The position numbers were made by a program. A stretch of 64,000 nt of DNA, taken from contig CBDCFN010000015.1 in NCBI GenBank assembly GCA_965216315.1, positions 256,001 to 320,000 on the forward strand, in the 5' to 3' direction. Shown here piece by piece: positions 39,001-45,000 of this stretch; the stretch's first letter is position 1; each line of letters opens with the position of its first letter. The stretch is from a bacterium (GTDB lineage: Bacteria; UBA10199; 2-02-FULL-50-16; JAJFLM01).

Positions 39001-42000
39001 AGTCGTTACGGGGGTACCAGCGAGTAACGCGGCCCCAAAGGCCCCTTATATCAATTTTAGTTATTCCAGCGCCGATTCGGATGAACCCCGAGCGACCTCT
39101 TTCAGCGCCGAGCTCCCGAACACCCCTTATTGCGATAAGCTCGCCGCTCGGTCGCCCGAACAACTCGCATGGGAAAAGGAATTGTTTGAACTGATCAATG
39201 AAATCAGAGTCGCCGGTGCGGATTGCCGGAGTGAAGGCATTAAGGCAAGCGCCCCACCACTCGACATAAGCCCGGTCCTTTATTGTACGGCATGCCTGCA
39301 CAGCCAGGACATGTATGAGCGCGCCTTTGTCTCCCATACAAATCCCGATGGCTTATCGGTGTTCTGGCGTTCCTTTCTGGCCTCGCAGGTCGAGCTCGGT
39401 CAACCGCTCGTCGAAGTGTTCTCCCGCCTCGGTGAGAATATCGTTCACGGTCCGACAACGCCTGCAGCAGCTCTCAAGCACTGGCTCGCCAATGATCGCC
39501 ACTGCGCCAATCTCATGGACCCCTACTTTACTCACGCGGGAACCGGATCCCATCATGGCAATGATCAAGGGCGCTTCTGGACCCTAGCGCTCGGCACTCA
39601 ATTAAAGTAATGCCTAGTCGCCGCCACAATTAATTTACAAACCGTACTTCACAATCGCGGCTCGAATCGCCTCCGTGTCCCGTGCAATGCCCAGTTGTTC
39701 CATTTTCGTATAAAGATGCCGCCGTGAAATGCCCAAAGCCTCGGCAGCATGCCCCCGATGAAAACCATTATCACGGATCGCCAGCAAGATCTTCGCCGCC
39801 TCCGGATCGACTGGAGCGGTCGCTTTAGCCTTGGCCTTGCTCTTCACTTGGGCACTTCGTTTAGCGGCACTCCCCGATGCCAGCGCCTGCTTGAACTGCA
39901 TGGAATTCGGGACAATGACATTATCTTCCGCAAAGAGAACCGCCGTTTCGAGCGTATTTTGCAGTTCGCGAATATTCCCCGGCCAGTCATAGTTCATTAG
40001 TAAAGCCAAAGTCATCGGGTCCAATTGCGCGACTTCGCTTTTCTGACGTTCAGCTATTTGTTTGAGAAAATGATCCGCGAGTAACGGCAAGTCTTCCATG
40101 CGGTCACGCAAGGGTGGCAACGTCACTGTCACGCCATTGAGACGATAAAACAGGTCTTCACGAAATTCGCCACTCTCGACCAGCTCATGAAGATCCCGAT
40201 TACTGGCTGAAACCACCCTGACATCGACCTTAATGAGCTGATTCGAACCCAACGGACGAATCTCTCCTTCCTGTAAAAAGCGCAGCAACTTCGCCTGGAG
40301 GTTGAGGCTCATATCGGCAATCTCATCGAGAAAAACGGTCCCGCCATCCGCATAATGCAACATGCCTTTTTTATCGGATGTCGCATGCGTAAACGCGCCC
40401 TTCTTATGACCGAATAGTTCCGATTCCATCAGATTCTCGGGCAAAGCTGAGCAGTTCTCCGTTACGAAGGGCTTATTTTTTCGCAAGCTATTAAAGTGCA
40501 GGGCCCGTGCAATCGACTCCTTACCGGTCCCCGATTCACCATGAATCCACACCGGGATCTTCGCCTCCGTGATGCGATCCACCATGGCCAGCACTTGGAC
40601 CATCTTGGGAGAACGCCCGATAATGTCCGAATACTTATTTTGGAGCACGGCCCGAGATTCTTTAAGTTCCCGCGCCATCAACTCGACCTGTGAATTTTGA
40701 TCCGTAACCTGCTCAGTGAGATCGGCATTCTGAGCCTGAAGGGAAGCAATCATGGCTTCTTTCTGGAGCGCAATCGCGGCAATCCCCACAAAGGTTTTTA
40801 AGGCCTCTAAGACAGCTCCTTCAAACAATCCCTGTTCAAAGCGATGATCCAAATAAAAAACACCGAGTATCCCGTCGCGGCTCTTCACGGGAAGAGCGAC
40901 GATCGATTTGAGCTGGTGAAGTTGTGTGCTTTTGGAATCACGGAAGCGCACATCTTCCAGGGCGTTATCCGTGATAACTTCTTCACCGGTTTGCAGCGCG
41001 CGCTTAACCGCCGAAAGGCTAAAGGCAAAGGCATCCGTCTCCAACTCTTCCTTATGGATATTGCGCGCGGCCGCCAAAGTGTATCCCGGCAACGGACCGG
41101 AATTCTGATCCGACCGAACGAGGAGAAAACCTGTCTCGGCCTGGGCTAGCTGCATCGCCGCCTCCATCAAGTCCTCTAAAACGGACTCCATGTTTTCTTC
41201 CATAAGCAACTTTTGATTGAGGTCGGACAGACCTTCCAAGATGTTTTTGAGTTCCATTGTATTCTCCACTGACGGTTCATTGGCATCGGAATCCGCTGCG
41301 ACCCACCTGCGGTAATCGTAGCGATCGACAAAGGATACCTGCAATCCCAATGAAAGTTCTTGATAAATTGTTGTTAATAGGCGGCGCACCGCATCACTCT
41401 CTCGAGTGCGACTCAGCCAGCGCAAAGCCAGCTCCCGATTCCAATAATGTTCCAAATCATCCGTATCAGGCTTGGCATCGGCCAATTGTAAATAGCGACC
41501 GTCACGCCATTCACCGATCAGGTCGCGGACCTCGCTGGCATAAACCGCTGCCGGGGCATAATCCGCTTCTAATCCCGCCAACTCGACAACGAGTTGATCG
41601 GCGACCTTAAAATTACCGACCGCCGCTTCGGCAATAGCACTGTGCCGCAGGTTTTCCGCGAGATCATTCGGGTTAGCGAGTAAGCGCAGGATCTCTTGGG
41701 CCTGCCGGAGCCGGCGCAAGGCCTCGTCAAGTTGACCGCGTTTGCGCGCCAGCACCCCTTGGTTGGTCCAAACGGAGGCTAAGAAAAGACCGTTCTTAAG
41801 TTGCCGCGCCAAATTCTCGGCGCGGGCTTGGGTGGCTTCGGCATCATCAACCGCGCCGTGGGCCTGGGCCAGGAGTCCGCGCTGTAAGAGCGTGGAAAAT
41901 TCTCCTTCGGTAAATCCCGCCTCATGATACAGCTGTTCCGCTTGTTGAAGGTGCTTGAGACTTGTCGCCCAGTCCCTCTCGTGCGCATCCGCTACGGCCA

Positions 42001-45000
42001 GGTTGCGGTAAATCTCGGCCCGATGGCGTCCCGCCGCCTCACAGAGGTCTAAGGCCCGATGAAAATGGGTACGGGCTGTCTCGGAATCGCCACGATCCAA
42101 GGCATTCATCGCCAACAGGGTGTGGGCGCGGGTTGCGAACGGCCGTTGTTCCACCTCAGGGCCCGCACTTTCAAGACAACGCTCAAGACGTTGCGTTGAC
42201 TCCGGGATGTCACCGAGATTGCGGTAATTTAAACCCGTCGTGAACCAATACTTTACTTGGCGCTCGCGTTGACTCTCATCAGTGGCATCGAGCTGCAACC
42301 ATTGCTCACAGTATTCGAGGGCCTCAGGATAACGACCGAGCGCATTAAGCAAATTAATCTTCAGCCGCAACAACCGTGATTGTTCAGCAGAATCCTTGAT
42401 GTAGGGAAAGGCGGCGTTGAGCAGCTCCAACCCTTCTTCATGCCGGCCACTTTCCATCATCGCCTGCCCCGTCACGAGCATACCGGCTGCTAGTTCCGTT
42501 TCGTCTCTTAAGCACAGGGCGTGATGCAGTCGCTGCCGGTTGGGATAGGGATTCGCTCGCAGTGCTTTGAGCCAGGCCTGGTGCCATGTGCGCTGTTCAC
42601 TCGCCTTCATTTCTTGCAGCAGGCCTTCGGCCAAGAACTCAAAGGCCAGTTGATAGCTATGGCGTGTCGGATCGTTGCGGATGAGATCACGCTCCAACAA
42701 AGACTGCAGGGACACATGAAAATCATGGATAGACCGCGGGGCGAGAACACTCAGGAGATCCCGTTGCGAAACCGGCGCCTGGGTCACGGCCAACGCATAA
42801 AGAATGCGCCGCTCTTTTGCAGTAACATGCCCCAAGCGCAGCAACAGCATATCTTGGAGGGACGAGAGCTGACTCAATGCGCGGTGGGCCTCGGGACTCA
42901 TACGTCCGCCGCGAATCGCCTTTTCTTCCTGCAAGATACCGACAACCTCCACCAGCATAAGCGGATTGCCCCCGGTTTTTTCAACGAGCTCCCGAACAAT
43001 GGCCTTTTCGAGATCATCACCCAATGCCGCGGTCAAAAATGACTGGCTCGTTGCCTCATCCAGGTTGTTCAGCTGAATTTCTTGAACATTTTCTTGCTTA
43101 ATAAAATAAGCGAAAAGGTCGCGCGCTTTTTGACTGAGACCGTCATCATTCCACTCGAGCACGATGAGGCGGCCCTGAAGGGGCACGCCCCCCTGGTTGA
43201 GCGAAAGCAAAGTCCCTAATTGGCTTTCAGGTAATTGCTCGAGGTCACGGAAGACATAGACCTGACGGGTTCCGTTGCCAACGCCTAAGTCATGGAGGCC
43301 GTTTCTTAATTCCAGCGCCGGAAATTCTTTGAGCGATACCTTCATCAAGGCGCATTCCACTTGAAACTCTCGCAAAAACCGGCTCTTGCCGACTCCGGTG
43401 ATGCCGTGAAGACAAAAGAGCTGGGAGCTCTCGTCTATTTGCTTCAATGCAGACATGATTTGATCAAAACCACCCTCGGCCCCATACATCTGTGCTGCGT
43501 GATACTCCTGACGAGTCGGTATAGACTCTTCCTTCTTTTCACCCAAGGCCGCCAAGACTTCCGCAGCCTGTGCGAACCGTTGATTCAGCTCCAGCGTGAT
43601 CATCCGATCGATGACGCGACAGGGACGCGGATAGGCCTTGCAGAGTTCCGGGGTTTGCTCAGCTAATAATGCCGGTTGCTTCGTGAGTAGCTCTCGCAAG
43701 TCACGGCAATCGCCACGTGGGTGTTGGCCTGACAAGGCTTCATAAAAAACCGTTCCCAATGAAAAGAGATCGCTCGCCGGCCTATTCAGGCCGCTAAAAC
43801 GTTCCGGAGCCACATAAGGAATCGTTGCCGCCTCCAATGGACGACTTTCAGTCGCGCGGCTTGCCAGTCCAAAATCCAACAGGCGTACATGTCCCGAATC
43901 ATCGATGAGTATGTTTTGTGGAGAAAGGTCCCCATGCAGAATCTCTTGCGCATGTAAGTAATCGAGTGCATCCAGACACTCTTTAAACCAGGTGAAAATA
44001 AGCTCAGGTTCCTGCCCGCGGGCCGCGCTCAAGATGTCACGCCCCTCGACATATTCCATCCAGTAGCAGGCCCCTTTATCTTCGCCAAAAATGGCCGCAC
44101 TCTCCCCCGTCACACCTAGAAAAGAGATGAGGTGGGTGTGCTGCAGCCGGCAAAGAAAGCGGACTTCTGCTTCGATGGACTCAGTATTCAGCGCGCGTTT
44201 GACGACCACCGCTTGCCCTTGCGGCGTATGCGCCAGATAGACCTCTCCCATCCCCCCGGCACCGAGCGGTCGGATCAACTCCCATCCTGATGCAACAGCC
44301 ACCATCGTGTTTCCGCGTCCCGTTGTGATGGTAGCACAAACTGTGACAAGATAGCACAAATTGACCCTCACAAGCTGTGCCAGTAACCGCCGGTAATTCG
44401 TTATTTTTTCAATAATTTCAAGGCAGTTCAGCTTGGCACACGACTTGCTCTATAGACTCGCAACAGATCACACACACACAATGGTAAGCCGGCGGCAACG
44501 CCAAGATTAGTCTGGGGGGCTACCAGACACCCGCGTTACCGCCGGCACTTCCATTGAATTTTTTTGACTCGTGATCTTCTCCTCCGGCCTCGGCCGAGCC
44601 GGGAGACCGCACAGCACCCACGGTCCCCGGCACATTATTTTCCTTGGCTCTCGGTTCTGCCGGTCGACCGACCGCACCCCGGTCGTCCGGTAAACCGGAG
44701 CGAGGACAACTAAAAAGGAGCCTCGTCATGGAAATGGAAGAAGTCAGTCAAGTTACTTTGTTATCACATTACACCGAAGGGCGTGTCTCGCTCCAAGATG
44801 TCTGCGATCGACTCGGCATCCATCGCACCACCTTGTGGCGCAAACTCCAGCGGCTCAAGAAAGAAGGGCGGGAAGGCCTCGTTCACAAACTGAAGGGACG
44901 TCCTTCCAACAATGCGCGCCCCAAGGCAATTCAACAAGCGATCCGGGAATTATGGACAGAGAATTATTCTCGCACTGACATGAACATCACGCAATTCTAC

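Follow-up and report, generated by a model that had tools for sequence, protein, structure and literature searches.

Sigma-54 activators are usually placed under the control of two-component receivers or of domains that bind small ligands. In Myxococcus xanthus, sigma-54 activators are coupled to Ser/Thr phosphorylation through FHA domains, the kinase being a separate protein that is read by the FHA domain; these FHA-domain enhancer-binding proteins are reportedly the subject of work by Jelsbak et al. in 2005. In PknK of Mycobacterium tuberculosis, a Hanks kinase is joined to a MalT-like STAND/TPR region and phosphorylates a separate regulator, and to our knowledge PknK has neither a DNA-binding nor a sigma-54 output. 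The gene considered here, p1, lies in a window of 64,000 nt (the whole stretch of DNA that was analysed) from the 2.96 Mb, 16-contig draft genome of an uncultured bacterium. With PknK and other fusions of a Hanks kinase to a MalT-like STAND/TPR region it shares an N-terminal kinase, an AAA_16-type NTPase and MalT-like TPRs (TPR_MalT rows), whereas in p1 the output is built in. The p1 family differs from the M. xanthus FHA activators in having its kinase in the same chain or in an adjacent gene, and in having a GAF domain in place of FHA. The C-terminal 540 residues of p1 align end to end with the solved NifA structure 9qq6_C, and so resemble the group III enhancer-binding proteins NifA, NorR and PexR (GAF, AAA+, HTH); what sets p1 apart from these is a further ~1000 N-terminal residues of kinase, STAND and TPR. 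For NorR and PexR, the GAF domain has been described as inhibiting the AAA+ domain until the signal arrives (PMC12754779, PMC2941729).

The reading frame of p1 is free of stops across 39635-44371 on the reverse strand, and encodes 1556 residues when begun at ATG 44305; the frame reaches back to GTG 44371, and ATG 44305 agrees with the onset of the orthologue matches. The gene is real and intact. An initial annotation had given, for one of nine paralogues, a layout of Pkinase, AAA_16, TPR, GAF_2, Sigma54_activat, AAA_lid_14 and HTH_8, and each of these was recovered as a Pfam row in p1 (Table 1), the AAA_16 row (residues 277-315) standing at the cut-off with 32.5 bits against 32.6. Sigma54_activat (PF00158) covers residues 1228-1394 with an E-value of 5.6e-69, and AAA_lid_14 residues 1400-1472.

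Table 1. Features of p1 and of the adjoining divergent region, numbered from the first nucleotide of the window.
Feature	Coordinates	Strand	Evidence
Gene p1, 1556-aa kinase / STAND NTPase / TPR / GAF / sigma-54 AAA+ / HTH_8 protein	39635..44305	-	ORF and Pfam
HTH_8 (Fis-type) DNA-binding domain, residues 1502-1537	39695..39802	-	Pfam, 30.1 bits against a cut-off of 22
Sigma-54 interaction AAA+ domain and lid, residues 1228-1472 (GESGTGKE, GAFTHA, VFLDEI)	39890..40624	-	Pfam, NifA/ZraR alignment, motifs
GAF domain, residues 1037-1181	40763..41197	-	Pfam GAF_2 row
TPR / all-helical superhelix sensor region, residues ~590-985	41351..42538	-	Pfam TPR rows 645-914, AF2 model, PDB match
STAND nucleotide-binding module, residues ~277-564 (P-loop GITGVGKS, helical domain, winged helix)	42614..43477	-	Pfam, alignment, AF2 model, PDB match
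Hanks-like kinase domain, residues 9-244	43574..44281	-	Pkinase row, E 5.5e-32
Candidate enhancer: direct repeat TAGCACAAAyTG, two copies at a 20-bp spacing, lying within a 10-nt inverted repeat	44323..44373	.	61-111 bp upstream of the -24 element
Sigma-54 type -24/-12 promoter, TGGCAC-N5-TTGCT	44434..44449	+	11/12 consensus positions; 129 bp from the p1 ATG, directed away from p1
Long leader hairpin and, after it, a 7-T run; may be an attenuator or small RNA	44479..44565	+	-41.5 kcal/mol for 44460-44570, z -5.5
Likely target gene, single-copy HTH protein of ~111 aa	44734..45069	+	ORF listed from TTG 44644

The initial annotation had left the kinase active site unchecked, and its state in the window copy is mixed. 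Against the paralogues, PKA and PknA, the p1 kinase keeps the G-loop (GAGGMGEV), the beta3 Lys (VVVK), the alphaC Glu (E47), the catalytic D126 and N131, DFG and APE, and such full conservation of the ATP site fits an active enzyme. The HRD Arg and the catalytic-loop Lys are, however, absent: the domain is non-RD, and its catalytic loop reads HGDLSPQN in place of HRDLKPxN, Gly taking the position of the Arg and Ser that of the Lys. Because both residues are missing, and HGDLSPxN is conserved across the clade of the window copy, phosphotransfer by p1 is uncertain. It is conceivable, though in our estimate rather unlikely, that the kinase fold of p1 and its clade is no protein kinase and serves instead for dimerisation or as a scaffold that binds nucleotide (akin to a pseudokinase, or to an ATPase such as RIO/Bud32), leaving control to the STAND/TPR and GAF regions only. 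This would agree with the Ser aligned to the catalytic-loop Lys of PKA and PknA, kept in orthologues at 43-54% identity, with the weak ABC1, APH and RIO1 rows that Pfam places on the same stretch, and with a catalytic loop that we take to resemble those of RIO/Bud32; it accords poorly with the retention of every ATP-site residue listed above, and with the catalytic-loop Lys that the alignment shows in the other eight of the nine paralogues, the HRD Arg being present in two of the nine only.

In the middle region, the P-loop NTPase has the Walker A motif GITGVGKS and an acidic Walker B, an Asp following a hydrophobic strand (VYVFRD). An AF2 model of residues 250-1000 (pLDDT 88.5, pTM 0.78) is composed of an alpha/beta NTPase, a helical part, a winged helix and a TPR part. 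Its best match in the PDB is the STAND-TPR protein 6mfv_A (E 2.7e-11 over 742 alignment columns), although the TM-scores reach no more than 0.32/0.37; the matches listed further include Avs3 and SAMD9. As modelled, the middle of p1 is thus shown to have a STAND fold with a repeat sensor behind it.

The output side of the initial reading, a sigma-54 activator, held up well: the last third of the protein makes up a complete GAF-AAA+-HTH module of the NifA kind, the genome has one rpoN, and a near-consensus promoter lies beside most family members. The NifA model matches residues 1023-1498, and the solved structures 9qq6_C (NifA, over p1 residues 1016-1540) and ZraR align with E-values of 1.1e-77 and 4.9e-81. 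We rejected an assignment of p1 as NifA itself, the NifA equivalog TIGR01817 scoring 373.5 bits against a cut-off of 528.85; p1 is NifA-like by architecture. Walker A (GESGTGKE) and Walker B (VFLDEI) of the AAA+ domain are intact, and the sigma-54 contact loop is GAFTHA, with Phe and Thr kept, as it is in 5/5 of the p1/p2-type frames examined that include the region. GAFTHA, found in D. vulgaris DVU2894, is given among the GAFTGA variants that are expected to stay active (PMC4641369). Taken together, the AAA+ domain, contact loop, HTH, rpoN and promoter features support p1 being a bacterial enhancer-binding protein, predicted to open a sigma-54 promoter.

Eight fused paralogues accompany p1 in the genome, and the nine that had been proposed are indeed uninterrupted frames at nine loci. 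Counted from the starts picked in this analysis, their lengths are 1556, 1565, 1292, 1287, 1511, 1662, 1698, 1579 and 1217 aa, in agreement with the earlier range of 1,217-1,698 aa. The notion that these giant frames might be chimeras of assembly or gene calling, or decaying genes without function, could draw on the draft state of the genome in 16 contigs and on one member with a degenerate AAA+ domain; it is already contradicted by the nine frames of 1217-1698 codons, by full-length orthologues at 40-54% identity in other genomes and by the 1132 database proteins that match p1 residues 1-1190 at E<=1e-10, and with catalytic motifs conserved as well we give it almost no credence.

Not every part of the architecture is shared by all copies. 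Pkinase, TPR, GAF and Sigma54_activat rows are found in all nine; the P-loop NTPase block is absent from three (the 1292-, 1287- and 1217-aa copies, which have an alignment gap and no AAA_16 row there, and retain the TPRs alone), and the STAND NTPase can therefore not be the universal gate. One of the nine, the 1217-aa copy, has a degenerate AAA+ domain with no more than a partial Sigma54_activat match (E 5.6e-11), and lacks ESELFG/GAFTGA and the REDL arginines. HTH_8 is, as had been claimed, mostly present; its row is missing at E<=1e-4 from one copy (1579 aa) rather than from two, and that copy nonetheless aligns across the HTH region.

Against the single-protein reading of the initial annotation, the unit can also be made up of two genes. 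A tenth family member in the same genome is a clean two-gene split, and four relatives have seven similar split pairs that break at the same TPR|GAF linker, which argues that the two halves make one functional unit. No Pfam row for the STAND NTPase was found in the N-terminal half of this genome's split pair; with its absence from three of the nine fused copies, this indicates that the NTPase is dispensable for the core function of the family.

The split forms also bear on the role of the kinase. It might be a second, parallel output that phosphorylates other proteins (FHA proteins or other activators), with the AAA+ domain under GAF alone and the fusion doing no more than co-regulating two effectors. 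The N-terminal domain of STAND proteins is usually the effector, and the genome has 11 FHA matches, including two FHA-sigma-54 activators, and two PP2C matches; a separate operon, in which an FHA-Sigma54_activat-HTH_8 gene directly follows a Pkinase-PEGA gene, shows activators of this organism being fed by kinases in trans. We nevertheless regard such a parallel output as unlikely. The N- and C-terminal halves of the family co-diverge as a unit, yielding the same subfamily grouping, and in the split forms the halves remain adjacent and apparently translationally coupled, so that an intramolecular or cognate relation fits better than a free-standing output. Among the AAA+ cores, one branch (support 76/85; recovered in 78% of bootstrap trees) sets nine kinase-linked activators together on one side.

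The family is not confined to this genome. Database proteins with the order Pkinase-(AAA_16)-TPR-GAF-Sigma54_activat-HTH_8 have the same domain order and size as p1, and are annotated only as "sigma 54-interacting transcriptional regulator"; by eye, ~65 among the 120 matches listed for residues 1-1190 bear both Pkinase and Sigma54_activat rows. Cultured Sorangium spp. are included (P0071, P0072, P0077, P0089, P0099); the p1 clade differs from these in HGDLSPxN and GAFTHA, and only 14-16% of p1 was covered, at 33-35% identity, in the search limited to residues 1-1190. The same input cassette recurs in Pkinase-AAA_16-TPR-GAF-HisKA-HATPase_c proteins (P0051, from a Chloroflexota MAG; E 2e-37 with residues 1-1190), where the output is a histidine kinase in contrast to the sigma-54 AAA+/HTH of p1.

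The divergent promoter beside p1 is retained in the three orthologues compared (genomes G001, G020 and G027), at 102-153 bp. Words like TAGCACA/TGTGCTA recur in the orthologous intergenic regions, and we infer that the repeats at 44323-44373 may be the binding site of p1. Upstream of the promoter at 44434-44449, an IHF-type site was no better than in shuffled sequence (257/500); among the family, the exact IHF consensus occurs only at p5 and p6. Transcription might end before the HTH gene, within the 270-nt leader with its hairpin and U-run. The HTH gene itself is conserved in one orthologue locus, having 47% identity (E 2e-33) to the divergent neighbour of the p1 orthologue in G020.

The explanation that we favour, and hold to be somewhat probable as a whole, is that p1 is an enhancer-binding protein that opens its own divergent sigma-54 promoter under a kinase/STAND/TPR input. 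The C-terminal third would act as NifA or NorR do, binding the repeats that lie in the divergent intergenic stretch of 130 bp, forming an ATP-driven ring and opening the promoter at 44434-44449, which would drive the structured leader and the gene of the small HTH regulator. Input would be the task of the N-terminal two thirds, with a TPR sensor on a STAND nucleotide switch and the kinase-fold domain at the tip. Gating of the activator by the kinase and STAND module is what we infer from this arrangement: binding of a ligand or partner to the TPR region would free the STAND module to oligomerise, kinase domains and GAF-AAA+ modules would be gathered, and GAF inhibition would be relieved, by trans autophosphorylation or by mere proximity, allowing the AAA+ ring to assemble. 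The design occurs ten times in the genome, and each copy would have its own adjoining promoter and target. Ser/Thr phosphorylation is tied to 12 of the 18 sigma-54 activators in the genome, and we offer only tentatively, with limited confidence, the broader proposal that in this lineage the place of two-component receivers as their input has largely been taken by Ser/Thr-kinase modules, that each kinase/TPR(/STAND)-GAF-AAA+ protein carries a signal all the way from sensor to promoter by itself and serves a private neighbouring target, and that a STAND "signalosome", on oligomerising, directly seeds the AAA+ ring at the enhancer. If true, bacteria would have here an equivalent of the activation by proximity known from NLR/kinase complexes, its effector being a transcription motor.

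With the proposed control by a eukaryote-like kinase and an NLR-like switch, a single chain of the family would unite three major signalling devices. The family is numerous, yet, as the initial annotation had stated, no description of it was found in the literature searched, which left out Perez 2008, Bush & Dixon 2012 and Jelsbak 2005, where a mention would be likeliest, and Schneiker 2007. This genome is a handy entry point, being small and having more than half of its sigma-54 activators in the kinase-linked family, most with an identifiable promoter and target adjoining, so that a reporter host can be used to reconstitute regulator, DNA site and output. Which parts are essential is shown by the natural split and NTPase-less versions, and split pairs would let the halves be studied apart.

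Across the family, a divergent site of at least 11/12 positions lies no more than 300 bp upstream in six of the ten members; the corresponding figure for crude genes is 33 of 2135 (hypergeometric p 1.7e-9). A seventh member has a 10/12 site, two have same-strand sites just past the stop, and for one the site lies 921 bp upstream. Such adjacency is not seen everywhere: a divergent site within ~0.9 kb was found for none of four further p1/p2-like genes in relatives, one of which has a 10/12 site directed at the regulator. That family members would activate the adjoining promoter is, on this genomic context, well supported. The presumed targets are mostly lipoproteins or secreted proteins without Pfam rows, which fits the view that sigma-54 governs the exterior of the cell (PMC3162934). 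Two members of one subfamily, p6 and p8, face lipoproteins that are themselves paralogous (E 3e-14).

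The draft source genome (2.96 Mb in 16 contigs, 98% complete) was searched with the protein of the window gene p1 and scanned for open reading frames, which recovered nine giant frames without interruption, p1 to p9, encoding 1556, 1565, 1292, 1287, 1511, 1662, 1698, 1579 and 1217 residues from the starts chosen here. All nine carry Pkinase, TPR, GAF and Sigma54_activat rows, and the nine fused paralogues reported in the initial annotation are therefore confirmed. The common layout that it gave them holds in part: in the nine-way alignment the kinase, TPR and GAF parts are present in every copy, while the whole P-loop NTPase/winged-helix block is missing from the copies of 1292, 1287 and 1217 residues, where the kinase leads directly to the TPRs. 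The sigma-54 module is likewise retained in eight copies and has decayed in p9, the copy of 1217 residues (G000 C16:721600-725253; L036:4001-7654, minus strand), in which ESELFG/GAFTGA and the REDL arginines are gone and the Sigma54_activat match is partial (E 5.6e-11). The paralogues fall into the subfamilies (p1, p2), (p3, p4), (p5, p6, p8), p7 and p9; the N-terminal and C-terminal halves group alike, and have therefore diverged together rather than been shuffled. The members of the third subfamily (C-termini in L032, L033 and L035) also have an extension past HTH_8 with a second HTH-like segment.

In the window, positions 39635-44371 of the minus strand form a single open frame, which gives 1556 residues when begun at the ATG at 44305 (domains and neighbouring genes are tabulated below). 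The final 530 residues of p1 are NifA-like, yet score 373.5 bits against a NifA cut-off of 528.85 (NCBIfam). The nearest solved structures by sequence are ZraR (E 4.9e-81) and NifA, chain 9qq6_C of the latter matching residues 1016-1540 (E 1.1e-77), and for the N-terminus they are PKA, PknA and Aurora-type kinases. The family is classed as group III enhancer-binding proteins with a kinase/STAND input.

Domains and surroundings of p1, and loci of the split family members
Feature	Location	Strand	Remark
Protein kinase domain	p1 residues 9-244		Pfam
AAA_16 P-loop match	p1 residues 277-315		Pfam, borderline
TPR rows	p1, between residues 645 and 914		Pfam
GAF domain	p1 residues 1037-1181		Pfam
Sigma-54 interaction AAA+ domain	p1 residues 1228-1394		Pfam; lid 1400-1472
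HTH_8	p1 residues 1502-1537		Pfam
BamD/YfiO-like lipoprotein gene	window 36505-37266	+	convergent with p1
TPR protein gene	window 37272-38036	+	convergent with p1
Gene for 493-aa protein	window 38129-39610	+	CAP (cysteine-rich secretory protein) domain at C-terminus; convergent with p1
Sigma-54 site TGGCAC-N5-TTGCT	window 44434-44449		129 bp from p1 ATG
Split pair (tenth member)	C15:12798-17400		960-aa Pkinase-TPR gene, then 576-aa GAF-Sigma54_activat-HTH_8 gene
Split loci in relatives	L131, L133, L138, L144, L142, L140, L137

The middle of p1 (residues 250-1000) was modelled with AlphaFold2 from 29 relatives (mean pLDDT 88.5, pTM 0.78). The model places in order a five-stranded alpha/beta NTPase, a helical domain, a winged helix of helix-helix-strand-strand-helix topology and about 20 paired helices. 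Its top Foldseek match in the PDB is an archaeal "STAND protein with TPR" (6mfv_A; 742 alignment columns, E 2.7e-11), with global TM-scores that are low (0.32/0.37), as expected because the chain is flexible and multi-domain; Avs3 and SAMD9 are also among the matches. On the evidence of this model, p1 has a genuine STAND module in its middle region.

The kinase residues, left unchecked in the initial annotation, have now been examined across the nine paralogues. The catalytic Asp and Asn, the Asp and Gly of DFG, APE, the alphaC Glu and the subdomain XI Arg are invariant, with p5 having DLG in place of DFG. The HRD Arg is kept in just two of the nine kinases, so that the others are non-RD kinases. 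Alone among the paralogues, p1 has a Ser for the catalytic-loop Lys (HGDLSPQN), at the alignment position where PKA and PknA have their Lys. Orthologues from three other genomes share the loop, as HGDLSP or HGDISP, and so does one further, partial relative; yet another relative has HGDLAP, and the consensus of 29 aligned relatives carries the p1-type loop. Judged from these alignments, the atypical loop is a fixed character of the clade rather than a sign of decay; with it, the p1 kinase may or may not transfer phosphate. Eight of the nine paralogues have an AAA+ domain with intact Walker A and Walker B motifs. The sigma-54 contact loop reads GAFTHA in p1 and p2, a form conserved in their clade, and GAFTGA in six further copies; a Desulfovibrio vulgaris regulome study places GAFTHA among variants expected to retain activity (PMC4641369).

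A tenth member of the family is encoded by two genes, which overlap by 11 nt. The second has its ATG 7 nt past a GAAGGAG Shine-Dalgarno sequence, and its frame is shut five codons 5' of that ATG. A single-base assembly error keeps a residual chance as the explanation; against it, four related genomes show the same split, at seven loci in all, with the break always in the linker between TPR and GAF. Database relatives with Pkinase and TPR rows only (P0020, P0024, P0032, P0033 and P0036; 932-1010 aa) are also found. From the recurrent splits and these shorter relatives, kinase/TPR and GAF-activator are two separate modules that remain associated, fused or not. The split activator (L037:6885-8615) has two HTH_8 stretches.

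The genome has one copy of rpoN, and all its GG-N10-GC words were scored against the -24/-12 consensus; 98 sites score at least 11 of the 12 specified positions. In six of the ten family members such a site lies on the opposite strand, no more than 300 bp upstream of the start, against a background of 33 in 2135 crude genes (hypergeometric p 1.7e-9). At the equivalent divergent position p8 has a 10/12 site. For p3 and p7 the sites are on the strand of the gene itself, immediately past its stop codon, and one of the two scores 12/12; for p4 the site is 921 bp upstream with a lipoprotein gene in between. The divergent arrangement recurs in all three p1 orthologues from other genomes (54%, 48% and 48% identity), each with an 11/12 site at 102-153 bp; four further p1/p2-like genes of relatives speak against the generality of the arrangement, as none has a divergent site within about 0.9 kb and one has instead a 10/12 site aimed at the regulator. 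Taken together, the sequence data argue fairly strongly that the family members function as sigma-54 activators and that each acts specifically on its adjoining promoter. The decayed p9, though without GAFTGA and arginine fingers, retains on the opposite strand an 11/12 site, 165 bp upstream, that faces lipoprotein genes; p9 may repress, or work alongside a partner activator. In one relative, a p2-like gene (L146, G027 C4:364200-365200) has a 10/12 site about 170 bp upstream that is aimed at the regulator itself, and there may be autoregulation in this lineage.

Between p1 and its promoter lie two direct repeats of TAGCACAAAyTG, 20 bp apart and within a 10-nt inverted repeat; TAGCACA/TGTGCTA or TGTG words are present in the corresponding region of the p1 orthologues and of p2, and the repeats are a candidate enhancer of the p1 promoter. 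An exact IHF-type site was found upstream of the p5 and p6 promoters only, the one considered for p1 being dropped as no better than shuffles. A minus-strand TGGCAC 5' of p1's own start was also rejected, as a proper -12 element is missing, and a sigma-70/terminator scan of window 44200-45200 gave no signal above shuffle expectation.

The promoter beside p1 is followed by a leader of about 270 nt, whose first 100 nt hold a hairpin (window 44460-44570, plus strand; -41.5 kcal/mol, z -5.5, none of 200 shuffles as stable): a stem of 13 of 14 bp inside a longer fold, then seven T (44559-44565), about 170 nt ahead of a small HTH gene. Rfam had no match at E<=1 in window 44300-44800, and a genome search for the hairpin as a repeated element returned only itself; the hairpin could act as a transcription attenuator or belong to a small RNA made from the sigma-54 promoter. 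The HTH gene (HTH_29/HTH_23/HTH_32 rows) is single-copy in the genome. In one relative, G020, the orthologous promoter is followed by a gene with 47% identity to it, and comparison of the two places the likely start of the HTH gene at 44734. In two other relatives (G001 and G027) a different gene stands behind the conserved promoter.

The first genes behind the promoters of the other paralogues mostly lack any Pfam family (17 of 19 tested), and many predicted targets have N-termini of lipoprotein type, as judged by eye. The regulators p6 and p8 belong to one subfamily, and their targets are lipoproteins paralogous to each other (E 3e-14, with 32% identity over 217 residues), which suggests that regulator and target were duplicated as pairs. 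Three predicted target lipoproteins (L033:9157-10659, L035:2447-3826 and L032:11203-12255), otherwise without a Pfam family, have in common an N-terminal stretch PP-V/L-SIPAPV...SPD right after the lipobox Cys.

STAND modules oligomerise upon ligand binding and nucleotide exchange, and kinases can be activated by proximity. By analogy, the TPR/STAND part would sense a signal and oligomerise, gathering the GAF-AAA+ modules, and the kinase would reinforce or license this step. In NorR and PexR the GAF domain keeps the AAA+ domain inactive (PMC12754779). We infer that the N-terminal modules control the activator. Judging by the split pairs and by the copies without an NTPase, the conserved core consists of kinase, TPR and GAF-activator, with the NTPase optional.

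The genome encodes 18 Sigma54_activat proteins (17 strong matches and the degenerate p9), ten of them kinase-linked and two more with an FHA domain. The family also accounts for ten of the 16 strong Pkinase matches, and there are two PP2C phosphatases and five HU/IHF-family genes. A tree was built from 17 activator AAA+ cores, with p9 and three weak AAA+ matches excluded; in it a single branch (support 76/85; found in 78% of bootstrap trees) has all nine kinase-linked rows to one side, and none of 500 label shuffles was as clustered; this moderate support is compatible with one origin of the kinase-linked activators. An operon elsewhere in the genome (G000 C16:372422-376496; L039:4423-8497, minus strand) encodes an 885-aa Pkinase with five PEGA domains and, after 19 nt, a 465-aa FHA-Sigma54_activat-HTH_8 activator. 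It gives this genome a route to sigma-54 of the "kinase read by FHA" kind as well. The other FHA activator lies at C16:985819-987009.

Neither the initial annotation nor our own repeated literature search found a description of kinase-fused sigma-54 activators in the literature searched; the myxobacterial kinome literature, or the account of the So ce56 genome, may list kinases with a sigma-54 domain. With residues 1-1190 of p1, 1132 proteins matched at E<=1e-10 among 8000 scored, and about 65 of the 120 matches listed have both Pkinase and Sigma54_activat rows, counted by eye. The sources include cultured Sorangium spp. and MAGs of Deltaproteobacteria, Acidobacteria, Planctomycetota, Polarisedimenticolaceae and Cryosericum. 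Other ends occur on the same input cassette; P0051, for example, joins it to a histidine-kinase output instead. What is particular to this genome is the density, with ten members making up more than half of all activators in less than 3 Mb, together with regulator, promoter and target set side by side in clear units, and the naturally occurring forms that are split or lack the NTPase.

Sigma-54 activators are present in all 40 relatives (genomes of 1.5-3.7 Mb), and in at least 19 of them an activator match falls within an open frame of at least 1100 codons, among the matches listed (there are 287 more). A single frame spans both ends at four of the 80 loci kept (L040, L046, L063 and L112); L106 and L108, for which the matched residues suggested full-length fusions, proved to have separate kinase and activator genes. 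The source genome also has three small sigma-54 activators in tandem (G000 C16:69182-73000; frames of 475, 483 and 478 codons), and a similar tandem pair is found in many relatives.
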